DNA of 64,000 nucleotides from a phage. The translations under genes and the position numbers were made by a program. The notes beneath the pieces are model-generated. The model was not told the origin of the DNA and did no database searches. It saw only the letters and a program-made list of their open reading frames with translations. Shown in pieces: positions 1-54,494 of the stretch. Numbering within the stretch: position 1 is the first letter of the stretch; the number at the start of each line of letters is the position of its first letter. The stretch lies in the sequence record PZ386969.1; one strand, written 5' to 3'.

Positions 1-304
1 CGCCAAGGCGTGTGTGGGCTACAACCGTCTGGTTGAGAAGAACGAAGATCTGGGTCTACCGATGATCGAGTCGGGTGATAAGGTACAGATGGTGTTGTTG
101 AAGCCGGGCAACCCGTTTGGGCAGAACTACTTTGCATATCCTGAGTTCTTCCCTGAGGAGCTTGGTCTGGGCAAATGGGTGGATTATCAGGCGGCCTTTG
201 AGAAGTCCTTCATTGATCCGATTCAGTCTATCCTCGACGTGGTCGGCTGGTCACACAAGCGCCGTGTGAACCTTCTTGCCATGATGCAAAAGAAGAAAGG
301 TTGA
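1..304 (+). CDS. C-terminal fragment of a protein that starts upstream of the window
   Basis: Reading frame is open from position 2 to the stop at 302-304; the M at 14 is internal; no start visible in window. Confidence 0.5.
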   Translation, partial: AKACVGYNRLVEKNEDLGLPMIESGDKVQMVLLKPGNPFGQNYFAYPEFFPEELGLGKWVDYQAAFEKSFIDPIQSILDVVGWSHKRRVNLLAMMQKKKG

Positions 305-366: not shown

Positions 367-708
367 ATGAAACTCAATAAGATTCTTCTGGTGTGCGCTC
401 TGGCTTTCTCTACCACTGCGTGTTCCACCCTTCTGGACGTTGCGTCTACTGTAGACCTTGACGCGCCGACGTTCACCAATGAGCAGGCTGTGTCCAAGAT
501 GGAAGACACCATTAAGGCGCATGCGGCGTTGGATAACGCCACCCCAGGTCCGCTCCAAACTGTCTGCAACTATGACGATTCCATCCAGGAAGACGAAACT
601 TACCACTGCATCACCTACGTGAAGCAGGCCTCCGTCGTTCTGTATGCAGATTGTACCGAAGAACAGTGTGTTGCTACAGGCTACGATAAAGTTGAGGAAG
701 ACAAATGA
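367..708 (+). CDS. Putative lipoprotein
   Basis: ATG at 367 preceded by AGGTGA; N-terminal hydrophobic signal ending in a lipobox-like ...STTAC; track start 358 is a GTG in the same frame. Confidence 0.55.
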   Translation: MKLNKILLVCALAFSTTACSTLLDVASTVDLDAPTFTNEQAVSKMEDTIKAHAALDNATPGPLQTVCNYDDSIQEDETYHCITYVKQASVVLYADCTEEQCVATGYDKVEEDK

Positions 709-1484
709 ACAACCTGGTTTGTATCTATGATATGAAATCAAAGGTCGGTGGCCTGTATCGCGTCCTCGTGGATGTTGACCTGACGTTGGTCGACAGCCTC
801 TCCCCTTGGGTGCAGTGGTTTAACGAAGAGAACATCGCCGCCGCTGCTATCGCTACGGGGGAACATAAGTCATACCAGTTCCAGCCGATTACCAAAGAGT
901 GTTATATGTCCCATGCTGGCGACCTGGCTATTCTGATGCGTGAACGTGCGCATCCGGCGTGGCTATACCATGAAGTCCAATTGGGGATGCACAAACAACG
1001 TGTGCCAAGCGGTAACGATCCTATGGACTGGTGGCGTCGCCCTGACTTGTACGCCAAGATGAACCCGCTCCCCGGCGCTTACGAGTTCCTGGTAAATCTG
1101 AAGGATATCTTGCTTGAAGATTTCGACAATGTTGAATTCATCGCAGTGTCCAAGTGCGAGCCGGAACACGAGCGCAGCAAGCGTCAGTTTGTCTATGACA
1201 AGTTCCCTGGTATCTTCAACGGGTTTGTCAGCACCGACGAAAAGCATCTGCTGGCTGGCGATGTCCTGATTGATGACAATCCGAAGTATGTCGAGCCGTG
1301 CGGCCTGAACAACATCTTTGTCATCTTTGTTCCTCAGGGCAATTATGAAAAACTGGATCTTTCGAATTCGGAAGACATGCTTTATATTAAACCAGTAGAA
1401 GGCCAGAATCACTTCGACTTCCTGAATTACAATATTGTTGAAGTGGTTAACCGCCTGATTAGTCATTATCAATACGTCCGATAG
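705..1484 (+). CDS. HAD-superfamily phosphatase (5'-nucleotidase / polynucleotide 3'-phosphatase-like)
   Basis: DxDxT motif (VDVDLTLVD) near N-terminus and downstream GDVLIDDN motif typical of HAD phosphatases; ATGA start/stop overlap with upstream gene. Confidence 0.6.
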   Translation: MNNLVCIYDMKSKVGGLYRVLVDVDLTLVDSLSPWVQWFNEENIAAAAIATGEHKSYQFQPITKECYMSHAGDLAILMRERAHPAWLYHEVQLGMHKQRVPSGNDPMDWWRRPDLYAKMNPLPGAYEFLVNLKDILLEDFDNVEFIAVSKCEPEHERSKRQFVYDKFPGIFNGFVSTDEKHLLAGDVLIDDNPKYVEPCGLNNIFVIFVPQGNYEKLDLSNSEDMLYIKPVEGQNHFDFLNYNIVEVVNRLISHYQYVR

Positions 1485-1493
1485 GAGGACATC

Positions 1494-1799
1494 GTGCAAG
1501 AACAATCCAAGTTTGGGGAAACCCCAGACAAGCGTTCCGGTGATAGCGACATGGATAGCGTGATTAACCATGTGAACAACTTCATTCGCCAGCAGGAGAC
1601 TCCAACTCCTATCGGTGCAGCCAAGGCTCTTCATGATGTACTGGTGAAGATCGGCCAGCGCTCTGAAGCGGATGAAATCTTCTATAACTTTGACGACCAG
1701 TATAAAGTTAAGTTTGAAGAGAATGGCCGCCCACAGGTTGCTGTGTTCTGGGCACCTTGGTTGGGCGGCGTGAGCTGGCGTATTGAGGATGCTGTGTAA
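1494..1799 (+). CDS. Hypothetical protein
   Basis: GTG start preceded by AGGAGG; stop overlaps next start. Confidence 0.45.
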   Translation: MQEQSKFGETPDKRSGDSDMDSVINHVNNFIRQQETPTPIGAAKALHDVLVKIGQRSEADEIFYNFDDQYKVKFEENGRPQVAVFWAPWLGGVSWRIEDAV

Positions 1800-2704
1800 T
1801 GGCAAAAATTATCGTAGTGAAAGGAACCAGCGGTACGGGTAAGGGCACCCGTGTTGTCCAGTTCATCGAATGGCTGCGCACTAAGCTGGAGCCTACCGAA
1901 CTGACCTACACCGTTGGTGACAAGACTCGCCCGTTTGGCCTGAAGTTCGGAGAGCTGAAGTTAATCTTCGTTGGGCAGTACACCGTGTCTAACAAATCCG
2001 GTCTGGCTTCTTGGACGTCGATGGACGCCATTCATGCTGCTACAGGCTCAGGCGATATTGCTCGTGATCTAATCAAGTGCTGGTTGGTTCAGGGATACAC
2101 TCTGGTGTGTGAGGGCGAACCTCTCATGCTATCGGACAAATGGCGTCCTGAATGGATGTTCAAGAACTATCCGATTGAATCATTGGCGCTGCTGTACTTT
2201 GCGTACCCCGACCGCTATCAGTACGATGCTCGTATCCGTGGTCGATCTGGTAAAGAAGCAGGGAACTCCGGCTGGTCGCGCAACGAATCTTACTACAAGG
2301 AGTTTGAGAAGTCGAAGGCCGAAATGCTGGCACTGGGGTGGAACGTTTTGGCAGATGTGTACAGCGGACAGGATGTTGAGTACATGAAACCTTCTCCAAA
2401 TGAGTGGGAAATGGACCCACGCAGCGAGCTGGCAGTCATGCCGTTTGATGCCCCTCTTTGGGTTGTTGGGGATGCTATCGCTTATCAGATGGATATCGGT
2501 GTGGTCGACCTTGACATCAAAGACTTCTATGCTTTCTGTGAAACCAATCCGATGACTCGTGAAATCGGCGGCCAAGATCCTTTGGCGCACAGAGTCCCTG
2601 AGAAGCCGCAGAAGGCATCCAAAACTAAAACCAAGGCGAGCGCCCAGCCAGAAGCAACGAAGGCAGCGTCGCGCTCTCTCCTTGACCTGATGAAGAAGGG
2701 GTGA
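1799..2704 (+). CDS. P-loop NTPase / kinase-like protein
   Basis: Walker A VVKGTSGTGKGT at N-terminus; lysine-rich C-terminal tail; paralogue-like to 45264-45935. Confidence 0.55.
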   Translation: MAKIIVVKGTSGTGKGTRVVQFIEWLRTKLEPTELTYTVGDKTRPFGLKFGELKLIFVGQYTVSNKSGLASWTSMDAIHAATGSGDIARDLIKCWLVQGYTLVCEGEPLMLSDKWRPEWMFKNYPIESLALLYFAYPDRYQYDARIRGRSGKEAGNSGWSRNESYYKEFEKSKAEMLALGWNVLADVYSGQDVEYMKPSPNEWEMDPRSELAVMPFDAPLWVVGDAIAYQMDIGVVDLDIKDFYAFCETNPMTREIGGQDPLAHRVPEKPQKASKTKTKASAQPEATKAASRSLLDLMKKG

Positions 2705-2706
2705 TC

Positions 2707-2904
2707 ATGAAACGGTTGTCTAATTATCTGTTGTTCATTGGTCTGGTTATGGCAGCCGTTTCAATGTGTACTGCCCTAGCCTATCATTTCACCCCTCTGG
2801 ACTTAACAACCTCAGAGAAGTTGAACGTGACTGTGATGTACTGTATTGGCGCGGTGATGTCTATCGGCGCTGCTGGTTACAAAATATTCAAGGAACCAAA
2901 ATGA
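2707..2904 (+). CDS. Small membrane protein
   Basis: ATG at 2707 in frame with track ORF 2701; two hydrophobic segments. Confidence 0.4.
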   Translation: MKRLSNYLLFIGLVMAAVSMCTALAYHFTPLDLTTSEKLNVTVMYCIGAVMSIGAAGYKIFKEPK

Positions 2905-3278
2905 AAATTCAAATCCCTCGCGATGCTGTGGCTGTTGCGATTGACTACACCGGAAACGCCAAGCACATTACTGCCGTGCGCCTGATTCCTGAAAAGAACT
3001 GCGTCATCCCTCAGTTCCAGCTGAATGCCAATCCGTCGTCCAAAGACTTCGGTAAGTGGTTGCAGGCTGCTCCGTTCCGTACCCAGACGAATGCCCAGAT
3101 GTTCATCTCGGGTAAGACCCACACTGTAGCCCGTCTTTGGTTTGTGACCGCCGACCGCCGCTTCATCGATATGTGGGAACGTCCGATGGGGTTCGTGAAG
3201 CCGGAAGATATTCAGCTGGCTCCTGAGCCTGAAGCTGTGGCTCCTGAAGAGGAAGCGAAAGATGCATCATTTATCTAA
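2901..3278 (+). CDS. Hypothetical protein
   Basis: ATG at 2901 in ATGA overlap with previous stop, preceded by AGGAA; same frame as track ORF 2766. Confidence 0.45.
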   Translation: MKIQIPRDAVAVAIDYTGNAKHITAVRLIPEKNCVIPQFQLNANPSSKDFGKWLQAAPFRTQTNAQMFISGKTHTVARLWFVTADRRFIDMWERPMGFVKPEDIQLAPEPEAVAPEEEAKDASFI

Positions 3279-4500
3279 AATGCCGACGGGTTATACGCCT
3301 CCGGCTGAATGGAAGTACCCGATTGACCTGGCTGTTGATTATCGCAAGCCTGAGAATCGCATGTACCTGCTCAAGGCTTGGGTGGAGGCGCTGTCCTACA
3401 CAGAAGAGCACAACCAGCAGATGCGTCTGATGGACTATGCGATCGAAGTCACTGAAGGCATCAGCCTCGAACAGAAAGTCGAGCGCAAGATCTGGATGGC
3501 ATTCCTGTGGGGTTGTTGCTATAACGCCGTCGGACCGTGGACGATCTACAGTGAGTTCCCTGTGCCGCCTCAGTCTAAGGAAGAGATGCAGCGCTTCTCT
3601 GATTGGTATAATCTGAACTTTGAACGCATGCGATTCGATACCGACTGTCGCTACCGCAAGTCCAAGATGATTCCGTGTGTTCAGTCCTATATTGACTGGC
3701 TGGCTGGCCGTACTCAATATGACGCTTTCCGTGGGATGTTGGTGTGCATCGATAAGACAGAACAATTCACCCAGCTGTGGGACACGGCGATGTCCTGGAA
3801 ATACTTCGGTCGCCTGAGCGCCTGGAACTTCCTGGAAGCCCTGAACATGGTCTTCGGGAACGAATACACCATTGACGTCCCTGGCTTCATGCTGCGTGAT
3901 CGTGATGGAAGCGAGTCCAACCGTAATGGCGCGGCGTTCTTGTCCAACCGTGACGATTGGGTGACTAAACACGGGAAGAAAAAGATCAACGGTTGTCCTA
4001 TCACGGATGAAGAGTGTGACATCCTTGAGGCCGACCTTGAGCAGGCGTTCCAGGATTGTGTGGCTGAGTTCGGGCACCTGACGTTCATCAACCGCCTGAA
4101 CTTTGAAACCTCCGGTGCTTGTTGGCTGAAGAAATTCTTCCGACTGAAGAATACCCGTTACATCGGGTGGGACGCAGAGCGTACCTGGGATGAGATAGAC
4201 TACATGGAACGCGTCTGGCCTGAATACTCCTGCGCAGCGCTCTGGGAAGCCCGTTCGCTCTGGCTGCCAGATACCCTGTTATGTGAAAAGGCTCCTGCAG
4301 GGCACGTTCCAGGCGTCCAGAAGTGGAAGATGCCTGTATTCTTTGAGACTGGTGTTCCTCTGCATATCTGGCACCTGCAAAAGGGTACGCGCTGGGAACC
4401 ATCCGAGGTATGTACGAACCTGAAGATGCCTGTGCGCAAGGTTGAGGACAAGCAGCCGCGCAAACATAGCGTCAACCTCATGACACTCTTGAAACGCTGA
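3262..4500 (+). CDS. Hypothetical protein (412 aa)
   Basis: Long ORF, start preceded by GAGGAAG; no family recognised by eye. Confidence 0.6.
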   Translation: MHHLSKMPTGYTPPAEWKYPIDLAVDYRKPENRMYLLKAWVEALSYTEEHNQQMRLMDYAIEVTEGISLEQKVERKIWMAFLWGCCYNAVGPWTIYSEFPVPPQSKEEMQRFSDWYNLNFERMRFDTDCRYRKSKMIPCVQSYIDWLAGRTQYDAFRGMLVCIDKTEQFTQLWDTAMSWKYFGRLSAWNFLEALNMVFGNEYTIDVPGFMLRDRDGSESNRNGAAFLSNRDDWVTKHGKKKINGCPITDEECDILEADLEQAFQDCVAEFGHLTFINRLNFETSGACWLKKFFRLKNTRYIGWDAERTWDEIDYMERVWPEYSCAALWEARSLWLPDTLLCEKAPAGHVPGVQKWKMPVFFETGVPLHIWHLQKGTRWEPSEVCTNLKMPVRKVEDKQPRKHSVNLMTLLKR

Positions 4501-25693: not shown

Positions 25694-26008
25694 ATGACCC
25701 CATTAAAAGAAATGTATGAGCGCCTGGCTGAACTGCAGGCGAAGGAAAAGCGCTTCTCAGAAGAAGAGTCTGAAATCTCCGAGCTGAACAACCTGATTGC
25801 CACTCGCGAGAAGTACCTGCAGCGCTACATTAATCACCCGCCGCGCATGGTAGACCGCGTCAGCACTATCATGGACCTGGATGAAGTTACTCCTGGTAAA
25901 GAAATCATTGTCAGGGAAGTCCACCAGATGGTCGCCATGGGTCAGATCTTTGGTCGTGCAGACCAAGACGACATGATCTTCCTCCTTGAAAAGAAACTGG
26001 TGATGTGA
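25694..26008 (+). CDS. Hypothetical protein
   Basis: RBS AAGAGGAA; ATGA overlap with dCMP deaminase. Confidence 0.45.
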   Translation: MTPLKEMYERLAELQAKEKRFSEEESEISELNNLIATREKYLQRYINHPPRMVDRVSTIMDLDEVTPGKEIIVREVHQMVAMGQIFGRADQDDMIFLLEKKLVM

Positions 26009-26514
26009 TGGCTATCAAACCCCGTATGTTATTTGCGCATATGCGCTCGGCTCATGCATACGCCCTGTCCAGCTATGCCCAGCGCCTGAAGGTCGGCTGT
26101 GTTATCGTTGACCCGCGTGTTGACCAGCCCCTGTCTATCGGTTGGAACGGGACTGCTCCTGGCGCTCCTAATGTCTGTGAGAAGGAAGTAGACGGTCAAC
26201 TGGTATCGGTGGGTGTTATCCACGCCGAGGAGAATGCTCTGAGCAAACTCCCCCAGCACACCGAAGACTGTTGTGGCCTGGTGATGTTTGTCACTCATAG
26301 CCCATGCCCAGAGTGCACCCGTCGTATTATCGACAGTGGCAAGATCGCTAAAGTGTTCTATGACCGACCATATCGTATCATAGACGGCATTATTGAAATG
26401 CTGAATGCTGGGATTGAAGTATATCGCATGGTCGATCAGTTTGTTGTAGTCCAGCATTCTGTGAAGAACGGCGAACTGGTATCCACCCCTGTTTTAGTGA
26501 ACCCTGACAAATAA
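26005..26514 (+). CDS. dCMP deaminase
   Basis: Zinc-binding cytidine/deoxycytidylate deaminase motifs HAEENAL and PCPECTRRI. Confidence 0.8.
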   Translation: MMAIKPRMLFAHMRSAHAYALSSYAQRLKVGCVIVDPRVDQPLSIGWNGTAPGAPNVCEKEVDGQLVSVGVIHAEENALSKLPQHTEDCCGLVMFVTHSPCPECTRRIIDSGKIAKVFYDRPYRIIDGIIEMLNAGIEVYRMVDQFVVVQHSVKNGELVSTPVLVNPDK

Positions 26515-37374: not shown

Positions 37375-37590
37375 TCACTTCCTCATCAATGAGAGTAGGT
37401 TGACCGTAGCCGGACGCGCATCAGGAGCGTAGAAGACGTCCTGAGAGTGCCTCTTACAGCACGGGCAATCCTTCGTGGCGATTACACAGGGAGCCTTGTC
37501 CACGGCAAATCCAGCGGCTTCGGCTTCCTTCACAGTGGTGAATGGCAGGTAAGCACTTGTGCCCTGCCCTCCGCATGAACATTCCATCAA
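37375..37590 (-). CDS. Small Cys-rich protein
   Basis: CSCGG and CPCC motifs. Confidence 0.4.
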   Translation of the reverse strand: MMECSCGGQGTSAYLPFTTVKEAEAAGFAVDKAPCVIATKDCPCCKRHSQDVFYAPDARPATVNLLSLMRK

Positions 37591-41511: not shown

Positions 41512-42574
41512 GGTCCATTTGCTCCAGCATGTTAGCAGGCATAACAGTACCGTTAGAAACACCGAACATTTTCTTCACGTCATCGGCGAAGTTGACATTC
41601 TCCAGCAGCGGATACCAGAAATCATCACCCATCTGACGCTTCTGATATTTCTTTTCCTTCTCAGGATCGAAACCGCCCTTGGCTGTACGCACATACCAGC
41701 CGGAAGACGGCATATCAACATAACCCAGAGCACGAGCGATCTCAAGCAGGCCGCTCCAGCGATCAATACCACCGTTGTACAGTACCGTGACAGGGAGCTT
41801 GGCTTTTTCTTTGACATGGCGGCCTTTCATGATGCTTATGTTGAAGTTCCAGCCCAGCAGATCTTTGTCTTCCTTCACCTGAGAACGGGTGATAAACCAG
41901 ATCAAGTTGGAGGATAAGAAGCCCTGTTTGCCGCCTTTGATGTTAGGCTCGGCATATTGGTTGCCGATCTCATCGTAATAGGAGTTGATCCAAACACACA
42001 CGAGATTTTTGCTGTTGATTTCGGGAGTCATGACACGCCAGAAGCTGTTGAGGGCACGGGCGCGGGTCATGTCTTGAGTGTCGTTCCCTTTGATCGCATC
42101 TTCAACTTCCTTGGTGGAGGGAAGTTGGCTGATAGAGTCGATGAAGATTATAACATGGTCGCCTTTCTTGACTTCCTGTAGGATCTGTAGCAATCGGATC
42201 TTGGTCTGTTCAACGTTGTCGATCGGTACGTACAGGACGCGATCCATGTCAATGCCCATAGAGGTCCAGTAATCAGCGTTGGCACCCTTTTCTGAGTCCG
42301 CAAAGACGCAGATAGCATCAGGGAACTTGTCCATGTACGCCTTGACGTCCACCAGACCGAACATCGTTTTGAAGGTACGGGAATCACCCACCATCATCTT
42401 GATACCGGAGATCAGGCCGCCGTCAATACGCCCAGACCATGCGATGTCGATCAGGGGAATACCAGTAGAACAGATGATAGACGGTTCCAGAGCGTCTGAT
42501 TGGGACAGCACTGAAGCCTGGTCATCGTGTTTCTTAGCAACCTTCAGCATGCGGTCCATTAATGAACTGGCCAT
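41489..42574 (-). CDS. uvsX: UvsX recombinase (RecA-like)
   Basis: Extended by-eye similarity to remembered T4 UvsX across the RecA core (FIDSISQL, MTRA). Confidence 0.85.
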   Translation of the reverse strand: MASSLMDRMLKVAKKHDDQASVLSQSDALEPSIICSTGIPLIDIAWSGRIDGGLISGIKMMVGDSRTFKTMFGLVDVKAYMDKFPDAICVFADSEKGANADYWTSMGIDMDRVLYVPIDNVEQTKIRLLQILQEVKKGDHVIIFIDSISQLPSTKEVEDAIKGNDTQDMTRARALNSFWRVMTPEINSKNLVCVWINSYYDEIGNQYAEPNIKGGKQGFLSSNLIWFITRSQVKEDKDLLGWNFNISIMKGRHVKEKAKLPVTVLYNGGIDRWSGLLEIARALGYVDMPSSGWYVRTAKGGFDPEKEKKYQKRQMGDDFWYPLLENVNFADDVKKMFGVSNGTVMPANMLEQMDHVINTSE

Positions 42575-43101
42575 TTCACTTCCTCTTTGTTGTTAATCGT
42601 CGTTAGTAAGTCTACACCCATAACCTTCTGGGACAAAATGTTAACCGCCTCTTGGATGCTCTTCAGGGACATTATCTCAACAAGTGACGATGCGTCATTA
42701 TGCCGGTCGGTTAGGTACATATTGCGCAGATTGTTGTAGTTCGTGCGGTTGATGCACGCAGTGTTCAGTGCTATATTCAGGATATACATCATCTGTTCAA
42801 TGGTTATATCCTTTGGCATAGCGTGGATGTAATAGATCGATCCTTCAAAATAGACGTCTACCAGTTCATCTGGTATCTTGATACCACCACTGGCATACTC
42901 TTCGATCATTCTGAACAGAGACTCTGGTTGCTCGCTGGCGATCTTATGCGTAACAGTCGCCGAAAGACCGTCGCCCGGTTTAACAGGCCTGTTGTATTCA
43001 GTAAGGAATACATTATGGCCGCCGCCGATGATGTGCTCGGCGAATTTGGAGGATGCCTGAGCAGCGTTCTCCGCATGGTATGAAACGACGACTGTAAACA
43101 T
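42559..43101 (-). CDS. Hypothetical protein
   Basis: ORF between uvsX and the nucleotide-metabolism cluster. Confidence 0.45.
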   Translation of the reverse strand: MFTVVVSYHAENAAQASSKFAEHIIGGGHNVFLTEYNRPVKPGDGLSATVTHKIASEQPESLFRMIEEYASGGIKIPDELVDVYFEGSIYYIHAMPKDITIEQMMYILNIALNTACINRTNYNNLRNMYLTDRHNDASSLVEIMSLKSIQEAVNILSQKVMGVDLLTTINNKEEVKWPVH

Positions 43102-43655
43102 TAGAACTCCAGGGTCAGAGGGGTTTCTGCGGACTTGTCGTAATCCGCGCCACCAGAAGCACGCAGACGATTGCGATCGTTCTTGCGTTTGTGCGCCAGC
43201 ATGTAAGTCTCAATGTCGATCTCCATATAAGAACACGCAGACGACAGGAAGAACATGAGAGTCTCAACGCAAGGATCGTTCATGAATTGCCCAAGGCGGT
43301 ACGTAACATTGCGATGCCCTACAACACCCAAAGCAGATGGGGTGAATTCGCGATTACTGAGGACTTCAAATTCTTCTTCGATCTCACCTTTGGTTCGGTC
43401 CACAAGGATGAAGCACAACATGAAGTGTACCACGTCCACCAGTTCATAAACTGCGTTCGTATGGTCAAACCCGATGTCGTTGCCATAGACCTTCCAGTCA
43501 CGGGTGGTTTCATCAAGGAACTCTGCCCACTCACGATAGATGGAGTTGATGACTGCGTTCTGACTCCATACATTCTTCCACTCTTCCCCAAAATAGGCCA
43601 CGTTGGTGACCTTTTGGAGTTCGAGCAGGCTTTTGATATGTCCTGCTGTGATCAT
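43101..43655 (-). CDS. Nucleoside triphosphate pyrophosphohydrolase (T4 gp56 dCTPase/dUTPase-like)
   Basis: YELVDVVHFMLCFILV parallels remembered T4 gp56 FELVDIFHFVLNMFV. Confidence 0.5.
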   Translation of the reverse strand: MITAGHIKSLLELQKVTNVAYFGEEWKNVWSQNAVINSIYREWAEFLDETTRDWKVYGNDIGFDHTNAVYELVDVVHFMLCFILVDRTKGEIEEEFEVLSNREFTPSALGVVGHRNVTYRLGQFMNDPCVETLMFFLSSACSYMEIDIETYMLAHKRKNDRNRLRASGGADYDKSAETPLTLEF

Positions 43656-44221
43656 TTACGTTCTCCGTAGAATTTAACGAACGGTTCCCAACCATCAAAT
43701 GGATTGAGGAATTCGTAGTCCACTTTCATTTGGTCAATGAAAGCCTCTATATCGTCCTCTATGATACCAGCACGGTCGGCCTTTGAAATACGGGTGATAG
43801 GACATTTCGTACTCAGCGCCCATTCATATTCCTGAGGGGTACGCAGATCGCTCACGATATAATGGACGTGGGGGTTCTGCTCTACCAGAGGAAGCTGGAA
43901 GCGCTTGAAGAATGCCAGGAACAGATCGGGTTGTACGTAACGCAAGCCCGTATCGCTGCCTAGATGAAGCCAGATCTGCCGTGGAGTTAAGCCCTTGGGG
44001 TTATCAGGGTGCACGTAAGGAACGTCCTTCACGGCATCCTCTACCTCCGCTGGGAGCCATGGGTAGATGTAGTTGGCCACACGGCGCAGTTCATCTGAGA
44101 ACGAAAGGCGCTGGATGTCCATATCACCCTGTAGTTGGTGATAGCTGATGAGGGACTCCAAACAGAAGTCCTTACCGGAGCGTTTGCGCCCCGTAAAGAA
44201 TTCAAGATTTGGGTACATCAT
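43652..44221 (-). CDS. Deoxynucleoside monophosphate kinase (T4 gp1-like)
   Basis: FTGRKRSGKD and YIVSDLRTPQEYEWA match T4 gp1 motifs (LSGVKRSGKD, YIVPDTRQDHEMDAA). Confidence 0.6.
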   Translation of the reverse strand: MMYPNLEFFTGRKRSGKDFCLESLISYHQLQGDMDIQRLSFSDELRRVANYIYPWLPAEVEDAVKDVPYVHPDNPKGLTPRQIWLHLGSDTGLRYVQPDLFLAFFKRFQLPLVEQNPHVHYIVSDLRTPQEYEWALSTKCPITRISKADRAGIIEDDIEAFIDQMKVDYEFLNPFDGWEPFVKFYGERK

Positions 44222-45264
44222 ACTACACCTTCCAGGAACTTAGGATCAACGATCTTGCGGTCAACCGGAGAATGGGTGAGCGCGGTGTTCAAGCCATGAT
44301 CCTGAATCAGGTCCAGGTTAATGAGCTTTTCGTTCAGTTTGCAGTGCAGACAGTACGCCATCTGTACAATCAGGCCGCGATCCGCATCGTATTCCTTCAG
44401 GTGAGCAACCACAGTTTCCCACGGGCTACCGATATCACAGTGATGAAGCACACCAGTGAACAGATTGCGGATATGGTTCTGGTTGGTCACGTTCGTGAAG
44501 TGGATCATGGAGTTGATGAACCCAGCTTCTACTTTGGTGTCCTTCGTGATCTTGCCCAGCTGCTTCTGGCTGACTTCATTGTTGTAGTAATGAAGATTGT
44601 TAGAGAATAGCTTGTACTGACCGACATCAACATCTAACACCCGAGCAATCACTTCCTGAAGAATAGAGAACTCAATGAAGTTGATTGAACTCATCCCCCA
44701 CAGAACATCCTGTGAGCGATTGATGACCGTCAGGTTCAGACGACCTTCAACGATGGCGAACAACAGAGCCAGGTTACACACCATGTCCTTAGTCTTTGCT
44801 TCGCCGCTCTCGCTGAACTTCGCCAGACCAGCATCCGAATCTAGAGCCGGGTCATAGATGGTGAGGTACGCCTGACGAGTGTTTGGGTTCTTGCGCAGGC
44901 GGTTGATAACGCTATCCAGCTGGCCATGGGCGTACAGACGCGGACCATAAGCAGCTCGCCATGTTACCCCATCATCCGAAAAGTTAGCAGCGCGAGGCAA
45001 TACGCGTGACAGGAACTTTATGTCGTTGCGGCCTGACAACACCCAGAAGGTCTCGCCGATGGCAGCGATAGCCGATGAGTTGCGACCTTCAACGGAGAGC
45101 CAGCGGTCACGAATATCGGAAACAGTGATAGTCACACCATCAAGGAAGCGGGTGCTATCAGTATTGATTTCAGCATTACCAGGATCAGATTCGATCCCGA
45201 ATTCACGGATAGCCAAGACAGCCTGCTTCAGCATGTCATTGTTGTTAATTGCTTTGATTTCCAT
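44218..45264 (-). CDS. Pyrimidine deoxynucleotide hydroxymethylase (ThyA superfamily, T4 gp42-like)
   Basis: ThyA-fold motifs RQAYLTIYDP and NRSQDV; catalytic Cys in MVCN context as in T4 dCMP hydroxymethylase (FMCTN), not the canonical PCH. Confidence 0.65.
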   Translation of the reverse strand: MEIKAINNNDMLKQAVLAIREFGIESDPGNAEINTDSTRFLDGVTITVSDIRDRWLSVEGRNSSAIAAIGETFWVLSGRNDIKFLSRVLPRAANFSDDGVTWRAAYGPRLYAHGQLDSVINRLRKNPNTRQAYLTIYDPALDSDAGLAKFSESGEAKTKDMVCNLALLFAIVEGRLNLTVINRSQDVLWGMSSINFIEFSILQEVIARVLDVDVGQYKLFSNNLHYYNNEVSQKQLGKITKDTKVEAGFINSMIHFTNVTNQNHIRNLFTGVLHHCDIGSPWETVVAHLKEYDADRGLIVQMAYCLHCKLNEKLINLDLIQDHGLNTALTHSPVDRKIVDPKFLEGVV

Positions 45265-45935
45265 CAGATACTCCCAAAATCACGACAGAGGAATGCCATC
45301 ACAGCCTGGTCTACCGTTAGGCCGTGAGACTTCATCATACCCGCAGCCACCGTAGGGAACAAGTCTTTATGTCGTTGACGATGGTCATGAACTCTCTCCC
45401 ACTTCTCGACCACCAGACTTTCATTGAAGTCCACACCGCCGTTACGTGATTTAACGCGGGTGATACACGTTTCAAGAGGAGTGTCCATAAAGAGCACAAC
45501 CAATTCACGTGGTGGGCGTGTCAGACGGGGGATCCAAGAACTCAATAATGTGGATGGAATGATACCTTCGAAAATCACATCATATTTCAAGTATTCTGGT
45601 TGGTCAGCAATAGACAACGCGAACAACATCTGCTCAGTGTCCTTCAGGGAATCAACCCCCTTGGACTTCGACTTGTCATATTTACCGATACAGACCACGT
45701 TGAACGAAGGACAGACAGTCAGCATGACCTTGCCATTATGGGTCACGACATACGCCTGAGGATCCCTCTCCGCCAGCTGAGACGGCACAGTGGATTTACC
45801 GCTACCATTGGAGCCTTTGACGTAGTAGATTTGCCCTCGTGCTGGGTAGATCCCCTTTACGACGGGTGGTTTAAAGAATGTGTGGACGGGGCGCTTCATC
45901 AACCCCTTCAGGGAGTAGGACATAAACTGCTCCAA
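45264..45935 (-). CDS. P-loop kinase-like protein
   Basis: Walker A YVKGSNGSGKST; several aligned blocks with the 1799-2704 protein. Confidence 0.55.
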   Translation of the reverse strand: MEQFMSYSLKGLMKRPVHTFFKPPVVKGIYPARGQIYYVKGSNGSGKSTVPSQLAERDPQAYVVTHNGKVMLTVCPSFNVVCIGKYDKSKSKGVDSLKDTEQMLFALSIADQPEYLKYDVIFEGIIPSTLLSSWIPRLTRPPRELVVLFMDTPLETCITRVKSRNGGVDFNESLVVEKWERVHDHRQRHKDLFPTVAAGMMKSHGLTVDQAVMAFLCRDFGSI

Positions 45936-49865: not shown

Positions 49866-50876
49866 TCAGTTAGACTTGAGATACTGCTCGAATTCATCAA
49901 TGGTAGCCGTGTTTCTGGCATCCGGTTGAGTCTGAGCCTGCGACGGCGCGGCCTGTTGCTGTTTCAGGCTGTCTTGAGCAGTTGGCTGATGTGTAGTCTG
50001 GGTGCTAGGAGCATGAGCCATCGTGGCTGCACCACCTTCAACCAGAGGCTGGTCATCAGGAATTGCCAGAACTTTGCGCAGGCGCTTTTCCAGGGTGTCG
50101 TAGTCTTTGAAGTTAGCCGGATTGAAGAATTCAAACAGGCTATGCTCACGAGACCAGACGTCTTCCATATACGCTTCGTCATCACTCAGCGGGGCAGGGT
50201 TCTCCCACACCACCTTACTGAAGTTTGCCACCAGACCTTCCCAGTTCCCAAACTTCTTCTGCTCGCCAAAGAGCTTCAGGTTCAGGTTGGCACCTTCCCA
50301 CAGATCGAACGGATCGAATTTAGGGTCGGTTGGGAACTTAGGATTCTGCGCCTGATCCAGGATTTTCTTGATGGCGTTACCAAATTTCAACAGGAAGACC
50401 TTGCCGTTGTTTTCCGGTACGTTGACATCTTTGATCACCAGAATGTTAGCGTAGTAATCGGTGTTGGGTAGACGTTTCTTCAGGATGTCCTTCAGCTTTT
50501 CGTCGTTCGTTTCTTTCTGCTGCGCCCACAGCGGACGGTCATGGTCGCGCACCGGATCGTCGTTGCCGAACGTCTGAGGTGAGTTCTCAATGTACCAACC
50601 ACCAGGTCCTTGGAACTGATGCTTCATGATCATGGCACAAGGGGTGAGGATCTGATCTTTATCGATCGTCCCTTCTTCCTGTGCCTTGAGGTCTACCAGC
50701 GGGACTGGCAGGAAGCGGATGATATTCTCGGAGATACCATCTTTGTTCCAAGTCCATTTCCAGATGCGAGGATCCTTCTGGAAACCGGACTTCTGGCCTT
50801 GCTGTGCAAGACGCGCCTGCATTGCTTCAGTTTGCTGGCCACGAGATGCTTTCAGACGATCGAATAAATTACCCAT
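49866..50876 (-). CDS. Single-stranded DNA-binding protein (T4 gp32-like)
   Basis: IIRFLP, YYANILVIKDVNVPENNGKVFLLKFG and WEGANLNLK match T4 gp32 blocks. Confidence 0.85.
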   Translation of the reverse strand: MGNLFDRLKASRGQQTEAMQARLAQQGQKSGFQKDPRIWKWTWNKDGISENIIRFLPVPLVDLKAQEEGTIDKDQILTPCAMIMKHQFQGPGGWYIENSPQTFGNDDPVRDHDRPLWAQQKETNDEKLKDILKKRLPNTDYYANILVIKDVNVPENNGKVFLLKFGNAIKKILDQAQNPKFPTDPKFDPFDLWEGANLNLKLFGEQKKFGNWEGLVANFSKVVWENPAPLSDDEAYMEDVWSREHSLFEFFNPANFKDYDTLEKRLRKVLAIPDDQPLVEGGAATMAHAPSTQTTHQPTAQDSLKQQQAAPSQAQTQPDARNTATIDEFEQYLKSN

Positions 50877-51221: not shown

Positions 51222-51467
51222 CTACACTAATTTCTTAGACTTTAGCGCGTCTTTGATCAGGCGCGCATCGGAGCACTCAGCTGTCAGTCGTGACAACAAT
51301 GGTGCTGTAATCATCTTTTTGACTTTGGTCTCGTCTATGTCGTTCTCTTCACAGACAGCTGCCAGAGTCTCAAGGATACTATCCTTGGTTTGGGCGGCGC
51401 GTAGTAGGACGATTTCAGAAAATAATTCTGGTGTCATCACAAGCGCTGGCTGTTTTTCGTCAGACAT
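51222..51467 (-). CDS. Hypothetical protein
   Basis: ORF only. Confidence 0.4.
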   Translation of the reverse strand: MSDEKQPALVMTPELFSEIVLLRAAQTKDSILETLAAVCEENDIDETKVKKMITAPLLSRLTAECSDARLIKDALKSKKLV

Positions 51468-53154: not shown

Positions 53155-53644
53155 AATCGCGCTCCACAACGTATTGGTAGACACGCATCTTAATATAGTC
53201 AGCACTGCCTGCTGAAGACAGCACCATCCATCCACTACTAAGGGCATTCATCTTATATTGACCAACACCCTCTTGAAAATAACTTTTAATCTGTTCCAGC
53301 TTTCGCACACGATGATAATACGAGATGAGTTCGCCGATGACAATACAATCTGGATAATGCTTTTCCAATGTATTGATGTTGCGGTGAACATATACGGGTA
53401 GAACTTCTTCATCGTCGATAGGGCTGTAGTATGGGTCTACAATGACCACTTGTAGACCATAACGCAGCAGGTCTTTGACACCCAGCCGACAGAACTTATA
53501 ATCTTCGTGTTTCATTGCCACATGGAGGATATTCTCTTTCTTGGCATAATCAGTCAGGAAGATAAAGAAGTCTGTGTTGGGATCGGGATATTGTATAGAC
53601 AGTTCTTTGCCTATTTCACTAAAACAAAATCCGCGCATTTTCAT
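53114..53644 (-). CDS. Hypothetical protein
   Basis: ORF only. Confidence 0.45.
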   Translation of the reverse strand: MKMRGFCFSEIGKELSIQYPDPNTDFFIFLTDYAKKENILHVAMKHEDYKFCRLGVKDLLRYGLQVVIVDPYYSPIDDEEVLPVYVHRNINTLEKHYPDCIVIGELISYYHRVRKLEQIKSYFQEGVGQYKMNALSSGWMVLSSAGSADYIKMRVYQYVVERDYELEKSNAKRKTR

Positions 53645-53687
53645 TCCTCGTTATAATTACTCTTACAATATACCGTGGAGATACATT

Positions 53688-54494
53688 ATGAATTTACCAT
53701 CATTGCCCAGAACAGAAAAGACATATAAAAGCGACTTTTGGCCTACTGTGATCAAATATCGCGCCTTTACTGCGGGGCAACAAACTTTATTACTTCAGGT
53801 GTCAGATCCGCAAACGCCGATTGAAGAACGCGCGGCCATGATGGAGAGTCTCTTTAGCGAGTGTGTAAATGCAGGCGCACCTTTCAGTAAACTGCCAATC
53901 GGCGTTGTTGAGGAAGTGTTCATCCGCATGCGCATGATCTCCATCGGTGAATTGATGAAGATTCGTTATAAGTGCAATAATCAGATTGAAGAAACGATCG
54001 ATCTGGGAGATGGTCAAGAAAAGCACCAGATGGTTCCCTGTGAGCAGGAACTGACTCTACCTATCCCGTTGAACAACGTCAAATGCATTGCTCAGGACGG
54101 CTTCCGGGAGACGTTTGACCTGCCAGGTGGATATCACCTCAAGATGCGCCAACCTTCCTTCTCGGACGCTACGGCACTGTCTGATGCTGCAAGCGTTGAG
54201 ATGATGCTGGCCACCTTTATCGACTGTCTGTACGATGATGACGGTCAGGTGTGGAAGGTTGAGAATCCTGAAGAAATCGGAATCACTCCGGAAGAGGCTA
54301 CTGAGCGCCGCCGTGTGAAAGAAGCGTTTGTTGAGTGGGTGAAGGATAACATCGAATCAGATGTTATTGACAGCATTACGAAGAACTTCTTCCATAAAAT
54401 ACCGCGCATCCACTACAAGAGTTCGATCAAGTGTCCGAAATGTGGTAAGGAGCACAAAATCGAATTCAATAGTATTAATGAAATTTTCATTTAA
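53688..54494 (+). CDS. Hypothetical protein with C-terminal zinc ribbon (possibly baseplate-associated)
   Basis: ATG 53688 with GGAG RBS; TTATAATTA upstream; CPKCG motif near C-terminus. Confidence 0.5.
   Translation: MNLPSLPRTEKTYKSDFWPTVIKYRAFTAGQQTLLLQVSDPQTPIEERAAMMESLFSECVNAGAPFSKLPIGVVEEVFIRMRMISIGELMKIRYKCNNQIEETIDLGDGQEKHQMVPCEQELTLPIPLNNVKCIAQDGFRETFDLPGGYHLKMRQPSFSDATALSDAASVEMMLATFIDCLYDDDGQVWKVENPEEIGITPEEATERRRVKEAFVEWVKDNIESDVIDSITKNFFHKIPRIHYKSSIKCPKCGKEHKIEFNSINEIFI

Follow-up and report, generated by a model that had tools for sequence, protein, structure and literature searches.

Two paralogous proteins of Salmonella phage ViI, gp67 and gp243, were named as predicted kinases (5-HMUDKs) of 5-hydroxymethyl-deoxyuridine (5-hmdU) in DNA in the study in which five ViI lysates were used to rebuild the synthesis of 5-NeOmdU (Lee et al., PNAS 2018, PMC5889632), and each of them was later reported to convert the 5-hmdU of SP8 DNA in vitro into 5-phosphomethyl-dU (5-PmdU), a nucleotide of 418 u (Lee et al., NAR 2021, PMC8989533). 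The reaction, which depends on ATP, puts a phosphate on the 5-hydroxymethyl of 5-hmdU within DNA and activates it for the transfer of an amino acid or a polyamine, and the ViI pathway was reconstituted with gp247 as the serine:DNA transferase and gp226 as the pyridoxal phosphate (PLP) decarboxylase (PMC8989533). Here we analyze a stretch of 64,000 nucleotides of phage DNA (record PZ386969.1), referred to below as the window, which by its sequence is assigned to a ViI-like myovirus of the Ackermannviridae and which carries two P-loop kinase genes, one at 1799..2704 on the + strand (HMUD2) and the other at 45264..45935 on the - strand (HMUD1). Both genes very probably encode 5-HMUDKs, as judged from the sequence. 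The presence of two such kinases is biology already published for ViI gp243 and gp67; what looks to be an apparently unreported lead is a tail resembling a PCNA-interacting protein (PIP) box that is common to HMUD2, the amino acid:DNA transferase, a gp160-type protein and the DNA polymerase.

Two Kinase Genes of the 5-HMUDK Families

The 301-aa product of 1799..2704 matched Pfam family PF18747 (HMUD2, named "5-hmdU DNA kinase 2") with an E value of 6.3e-151 and 502.1 bits (cut-off, 25), its residues 1-300 covering profile positions 1-298 of 298, and it shows 81% full-length identity to its orthologue ViI gp243 (YP_004327565). Its Walker A motif, VKGTSGTGKGT, occupies residues 7-17 (1817..1849, + strand), and the residues that are invariant among 33 homologues (G9, S11, G14, K15, G16, E105, G106, E107, R145, R149 and others) are all present. 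The AlphaFold2 (AF2) model, with a pLDDT of 87.6, consists of a P-loop kinase core and an additional C-terminal subdomain.

The open reading frame (ORF) of HMUD1 (223 aa) matched Pfam family PF18748 (HMUDK_HMUD1, named "5-hmdU DNA kinase") with an E value of 1.7e-108 and 361 bits (cut-off, 27), residues 18-212 aligning with profile positions 1-195 of 196, and its product is 88% identical to its orthologue ViI gp67 (YP_004327432). The Walker A motif, VKGSNGSGKST, spans residues 39-49 (45789..45821, - strand), and N43, G44, G46, K47, S48 and T49 are invariant among the aligned homologues. Translation of HMUD1 probably starts at the ATG at 45923 rather than at the TTG at 45935, because the orthologues begin with MSYSL. 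On its own strand the HMUD1 gene abuts the thymidylate synthase (TS)-like gene at 44218-45264, with one base in common, and the same arrangement is found in ViI and in Vibrio phage K475.

The initial annotation had located both ORFs and their Walker A motifs correctly, and it had proposed that thymidine hypermodification is activated when a P-loop kinase adds a phosphate to 5-hmdU in DNA and that one of the two kinases lies beside the hydroxymethylase. The first proposal is fully supported by the Pfam families and the ViI orthologues, and the second agrees with the overlap between the HMUD1 and TS-like genes. From family membership, orthology and synteny we infer that the kinases of the window themselves act on 5-hmdU DNA. 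The pathway is also co-distributed: 350 phage records contain HMUD2 and 347 contain the PLP enzyme, and the counts per genus are nearly equal.

The two proteins had also been regarded as paralogues with further aligned blocks, and they appear to be distant ones. A BLASTP comparison between them gave 24% identity over 168 residues with an E value of 0.001. Homologues were gathered (79 for HMUD2 and 29 for HMUD1) and representative sets were aligned, and profile-profile comparison of 33 versus 23 homologues by hhalign gave an E value of 4.6e-4 over 134 columns with a probability of just 33%, because both alignments are shallow. Beyond the P-loop, real blocks were aligned by hhalign in the same order in the two proteins (GQYTVSNKSGL/GKYDKSKSKGV, CEGE/FEGI and RGRSG/KSRNG). 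These comparisons support the paralogy of the kinases without being overwhelming, and the modest statistics (E about 1e-3, hhalign 33%) weigh against it.

A C-terminal Peptide Shared by HMUD2 and the DNA Polymerase

HMUD2 has at its C-terminal end a Lys/Pro/Ala-rich disordered linker (2600..2668, + strand; about residues 270-293, AF2 pLDDT 49-66) and a putative docking peptide, SRSLLDLMKKG, which resembles a PIP box (2669..2701, + strand) and in which the AF2 model places a short helix at residues 294-299, after the disordered stretch. Among the 79 homologues of HMUD2, the linker varies in sequence and length, including a deletion of 16 aa, while the terminal peptide is kept, and it is kept at the extreme C-terminus in homologues down to about 45% identity. 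All 22 aligned homologues of HMUD1 end without a linker or a tail.

Peptides of the same kind terminate three other products of the window, i.e. the transferase (SVNLMTLLKR, 4468-4497, + strand), the family-A DNA polymerase, as a 15-aa extension, KRRVNLLAMMQKKKG, that follows ...GWSH (257-301, + strand), and a 71-aa phrog_4789 protein (37375..37590, - strand; TVNLLSLMRK at 37378-37407). The pattern L[LM]x[LM][LM][KRQ][KR] occurs just four times in the 493 six-frame ORFs of the window (0.16 expected by chance, P about 3e-5), once in each of these three products and once in HMUD2, and each time 0-3 residues from the C-terminus. In ViI, whose proteome was scanned over 50-157 kb with the window standing in for the remainder, the tail is also present on gp243, gp247 and the polymerase, gp160 (aGPT-Pplase1; Pfam HMUDK_hel; locus L004, 37432-38655, - strand) ends with SVNLLDRLKKPE, and the PLP decarboxylase gp226 lacks the tail. 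The polymerases of ViI, phiMAM1, phiEa2809, KpS110 and PP35 likewise carry it. A scan for the T4-like acidic motif ([ST]L[DE..]) returned nothing besides HMUD2 itself.

The 71-aa phrog_4789 protein starts with MMECSCGGQG..., its K475 homologue is encoded directly upstream of the DNA ligase gene, and it may be a small clamp-associated factor.

Some N-terminal segments look similar to these tails, namely MGNLFDRLK of the single-stranded DNA-binding protein (SSB), MASSLMDRMLK of UvsX and SLFDYL of gp62, and they were set aside as clamp motifs; those of SSB and gp62 were discarded because they are conserved, not switched, in the Vibrio clade discussed below. The SSB N-terminus (window 49866-50876, - strand; MGLLDRLKK in K475, 53387-54442) closely resembles the NLLDRLKK of the ViI gp160 tail, and this segment may be a gp32-like cooperativity segment.

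A Possible Sliding Clamp Partner of the Tail

The tails were compared across seven genomes. In the Serratia, Erwinia, Klebsiella and Dickeya relatives, the polymerase, HMUD2 and the transferase all bear a motif of this class. In Vibrio phage K475, 5 of the 876 ORFs end with [KR][KR]LW (0.087 expected, P about 4e-8), and these five encode the polymerase, HMUD2, the transferase, the gp160-type protein and the phrog_4789 protein, the last of which ends with KTRKLW. The gp33-like late coactivator of K475 ends with KTKRLF. Since five families switch their C-terminal peptide together, in the Vibrio clade to K(K/R)LW, these data suggest that they all bind one and the same partner.

The C-termini of the polymerase (gp43), gp33 and gp55 of T4 and RB69 are interchangeable epitopes for the gp45 clamp that stand behind divergent linkers (PMC2988020, PMC3012046, PMC6212786). 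ViI-like phages encode a gp45-type clamp (orf00165 in ViI, VPHK475_0021 in K475; here the gene is located outside the window) and its loader, and in the enterobacterial motif, [ST]x[NS]L[LM]x[LM][LM], the hydrophobic residues are spaced as in the PIP template Qxxhxxaa. Given this precedent, the clamp genes and the PIP-like spacing, a gp45-type sliding clamp would be the most likely partner of the tail. It is an even chance, in our judgment, that HMUD2, the transferase, the gp160-type aGPT-Pplase1 and the 71-aa protein are clamp clients and constitute a hypermodification "toolbelt" that moves with the replisome. Under this division of labor, HMUD2, the transferase and the gp160-type protein would be tethered to the replisome through the C-terminal peptide and HMUD1 would act untethered.

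Several observations weigh against tethering to the clamp. The gp33-like late-transcription coactivator of the window (51222..51467, - strand; Pfam Trans_coact, E 8.5e-18), which the analogy with T4 (PMC2988020) makes a reference for clamp clients, ends with ...ALKSKKLV and not with a peptide of the NLLxLM type, and the gp55 homologues of ViI and K475 have neither motif. In the K475 polymerase an internal RVNLFAL has been retained alongside the KKLW end, so that the two types of motif are perhaps not equivalent. Alternatively, the basic tails could have DNA or a different replisome protein as their target. Moreover, an analogous interaction proposed between the T4 alpha-glucosyltransferase and gp45 was not reproduced in a 2025 preprint, and in vitro ViI gp243 needs no clamp for its activity, the tail therefore being dispensable for catalysis. 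No paper linking the hypermodification enzymes discussed here to the clamp was found in the literature searched.

Within the K475 polymerase (locus L008, 1967-5008), RVNLFALGG, which is related to the enterobacterial tail, lies about 27 residues upstream of the ...KARKLW end, and this polymerase may carry two docking elements.

The best surviving alternative is that the two kinases are merely redundant duplicates and that the tail binds DNA nonspecifically through its basic residues, or docks onto another component of the replisome, for example SSB or the helicase loader. Such a reading would fit the fact that both ViI kinases yield the same product in vitro, with no difference between them reported, the strongly basic nature of the tails and linkers, and the lack of an enterobacterial-type motif in the gp33 homologue of the window and in the gp55 homologues mentioned above. 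Nevertheless, it is the hydrophobic positions that are conserved and not charge alone, the motif is found solely at the very C-terminus of proteins from five families, the polymerase among them, and in the Vibrio clade, whose gp33 homologue has an almost identical end, all five families change it at once. Furthermore, both paralogues are kept across about 350 phage genomes. We regard the alternative as a real possibility, although one with less than an even chance of being right.

If the tethering of HMUD2 to the clamp were true, it would explain the occurrence of two 5-hmdU DNA kinases in ViI-like phages, one tethered and the other free, and possibly also why just a fraction of the thymidines is modified. 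It would, moreover, define a clamp-binding motif of the Ackermannviridae, phages in which a family-A polymerase is paired with a clamp of the T4 type. The shared tail provides a testable mechanism for the coupling of post-replicative base hypermodification to replication. A eukaryotic comparison is DNMT1, which binds PCNA. The tail also offers an answer to a question that Lee et al. left open, namely what the retention of two kinases and of two glycosylase-fold paralogues is for.

Other Assignments of the Kinases and the HAD Protein

Public annotations would make the two proteins ordinary small-molecule nucleotide kinases (guanylate or thymidylate kinases), or HMUD1 a small terminase subunit. 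HMUD2 is indeed named "guanylate kinase" in RefSeq and PHROG (phrog_4409), HMUD1 is named "terminase small subunit" or "thymidylate kinase" (phrog_800 and phrog_761), and the best Foldseek matches were guanylate and adenylate kinases. These matches are, however, generic (TM scores of 0.26-0.37 at 9-16% identity), a separate deoxynucleoside monophosphate (dNMP) kinase is encoded in the window at 43652-44221, a genuine small terminase is located elsewhere in ViI, and in the published assays the phosphate goes to DNA. The small-molecule kinase and terminase assignments, which we consider highly improbable, were therefore rejected as database mislabels. The practical value of identifying both genes as 5-HMUDKs lies in correct annotation, because many records mislabel them "guanylate kinase" or "terminase small subunit."

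The misannotation is systematic, and it extends to an "endonuclease" label for HMUD2 (phrog_15209); examples are Vi01_061c and Vi01_196 in ViI and VPHK475_0203 and 0211 in K475.

The other option of the initial annotation, a split polynucleotide kinase/phosphatase in which the P-loop proteins would phosphorylate 5'-OH ends and the HAD protein at 705-1484 would remove 3'-phosphates, like T4 Pnk, is unsupported and has a next to negligible probability, since, although the HAD protein that it invoked is real, the kinases match the 5-HMUDK families with E values from 1e-108 to 1e-151, the ViI orthologues phosphorylate the base and not DNA ends, PDB sequence searches with either kinase gave no match to T4 Pnk, the Pnk-like fold scored no better than adenylate kinase (the scores being equal), and the HAD protein matches NT5C deoxyribonucleotidases. 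In the comparison of profiles and structures, the 5-hmdU kinase profiles were matched over their full length with no specific affinity to T4 Pnk, and by sequence and fold the kinases were not nearer to those of the Pnk type than to P-loop kinases of other kinds.

The HAD-family protein (705..1484, + strand) contains the nucleophile motif DVDLT (DxDxT, motif I) at residues 23-27 (nt 771-785), and it matched Pfam NT5C with an E value of 1e-8 and 35.8 bits (cut-off, 24.8) over residues 109-198 only; its K475 homologue matches NT5C across residues 10-159. The PDB matches, which include the mitochondrial enzyme dNT-2, were 3bwv (E 0.002), 1mh9 and 4l6a. All matches in Pfam and PDB were to NT5C 5'(3')-deoxyribonucleotidases and none was to a phosphatase of the polynucleotide 3'-phosphatase type. 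The protein is 76% identical to ViI orf00239, and its gene lies between those of the polymerase and HMUD2 in six genera. Since a phage dTMPase and a dTTPase deplete thymidine nucleotides in the pre-replicative pathway of hmdU phages (PMC8989533), the HAD protein, an NT5C-type nucleotidase and not half of a Pnk, is best read as the probable dTMPase.

Gene Neighborhood and Proposed Modification Route

The gene order at both kinase loci is identical to that of ViI, and the order around HMUD2 is common to the window, ViI and five further genera. Upstream of HMUD2 are located the gene of the family-A DNA polymerase, of which the window contains the 3' end (14..304, + strand), the HAD gene and the gene of a DUF7254 protein (1494..1799, + strand; Pfam DUF7254, E 2e-52), whose stop overlaps the HMUD2 start (ATGA) and which relatives also keep 5' of HMUD2. 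The transferase gene (3262..4500, + strand; aGPT-Pplase2) encodes the orthologue of ViI gp247 (89% identity; Pfam ADDT, E 4.5e-60).

Three small conserved ORFs are found within the kinase-transferase cluster, at 1494-1799 (DUF7254), 2701-2904 (a 67-aa probable membrane protein) and 2901-3278 (a phrog_4163 protein), in an order that matches ViI and the Dickeya and Klebsiella relatives. A homing-endonuclease polymorphism surrounds the HMUD2 cluster among relatives (loci L001, L011 and L012). Thus, in phage RPN242 a SegD gene separates DUF7254 from HMUD2 (L001, 3298-3984), where the window has none, and the DNA polymerase gene of PP35 is interrupted by HNH endonuclease genes (L012, 1-3747). KpS110 and PP35 have annotated ORFs of 497-529 aa (open frames of 532 codons) that end in HMUD2 (L011, 5239-6828; L012, 5341-6834), and some HMUD2 homologues in the databases have 495-527 aa.

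At the HMUD1 locus, the TS homologue (44218..45264, - strand; Pfam Thymidylat_synt, E 1e-15; phrog_3676, E 2e-183) is a predicted dUMP hydroxymethylase and the positional orthologue of ViI orf00066; the 5-HMUDK is known to co-associate with dUMP hydroxymethyltransferase (PMC5889632). It is accompanied by the dNMP kinase (43652..44221, - strand; phrog_139 deoxynucleoside monophosphate kinase, E 1e-47), predicted to act on 5-hmdUMP by the role described in PMC8989533, and by a dUTPase_2/MazG-type NTP pyrophosphohydrolase (43101..43655, - strand; Pfam dUTPase_2, E 2e-8; phrog_173, E 1e-39), a candidate dTTPase/dUTPase. A dCMP deaminase (26005..26514, + strand; Pfam dCMP_cyt_deam_1, E 4e-16) would supply dUMP, again by the role given in PMC8989533.

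Between uvsX and the NTP pyrophosphohydrolase gene, where the nucleotide-pool module has its edge, a "Phage ACT-like domain" protein is encoded (42559-43101, - strand; PF24021, E 2e-79) that may regulate this module.

In the route that we propose, dTTP would be replaced by 5-hmdUTP through the TS-like hydroxymethylase, the dNMP kinase, the NTP pyrophosphohydrolase and the dCMP deaminase, probably together with the HAD protein as a dTMPase, and the phage polymerase would then build 5-hmdU into DNA. The two kinases would transfer phosphate from ATP to the 5-hydroxymethyl of the 5-hmdU residues in the DNA polymer and so yield 5-PmdU. The phosphate would act as the leaving group when the transferase encoded at 3262-4500 attaches serine, and a PLP decarboxylase, whose gene lies outside the window, would turn the resulting O-seryl-T into 5-(2-aminoethoxy)methyl-dU.

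Comparison with Known Systems

T4 Pnk resembles the proteins of the window in joining a phage-encoded P-loop kinase fold with a HAD-fold phosphatase, but the genes of the window are separate and of different families, with no specific affinity to Pnk in sequence or structure. T4 Pnk acts on the ends of nucleic acids, whereas the substrates in the window would be the hydroxymethyl group of a DNA base and, probably, free dNMPs.

The proteins gp54 of Pseudomonas phage M6, PaMx11 gp49, PhiW-14 gp37 and SP10 gp186N are characterized 5-HMUDKs with the same chemistry (PMC8989533). According to the published descriptions, on which this comparison is based, a single kinase is reported in M6, PaMx11 and PhiW-14, SP10 being excepted, and the end modifications of all these phages are different.

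The clamp peptides of T4 and RB69, which also include the LDFLF loop of T4 ligase, share with the window peptide a short hydrophobic extreme C-terminus, a variable unstructured linker and an occurrence on both the polymerase and non-polymerase clients. The window peptide differs in being followed by basic and not acidic residues, in having Leu/Met in place of aromatics and in standing on a family-A polymerase and on DNA-hypermodification enzymes, its binding to the clamp being putative.

The closest system is that of ViI, although the phage of the window belongs to another subfamily and its nearest relative is the Aglimvirinae phage vB_EcoM-RPN242 of Escherichia (95% identity over nt 1-6 kb of the window; 279 phage records gave a match). 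HMUD1 and ViI gp67 differ only by conservative substitutions, apart from the four extra N-terminal residues that the mechanical ORF call adds from the probably unused TTG; like HMUD1, gp67 is encoded directly upstream of, and overlapping, a TS-like dUMP hydroxymethylase gene, and it lacks a C-terminal tail. HMUD2 and ViI gp243 are most divergent in the surface region 181-240, and their tails read SRSLLDLMKKG and SVSLLGLMRKA, respectively. They are alike in length, in the Walker A motif and in the type of C-terminal linker and tail, and their genes have common neighbors in the polymerase, the HAD protein, DUF7254, the kinase, two small ORFs and the transferase.

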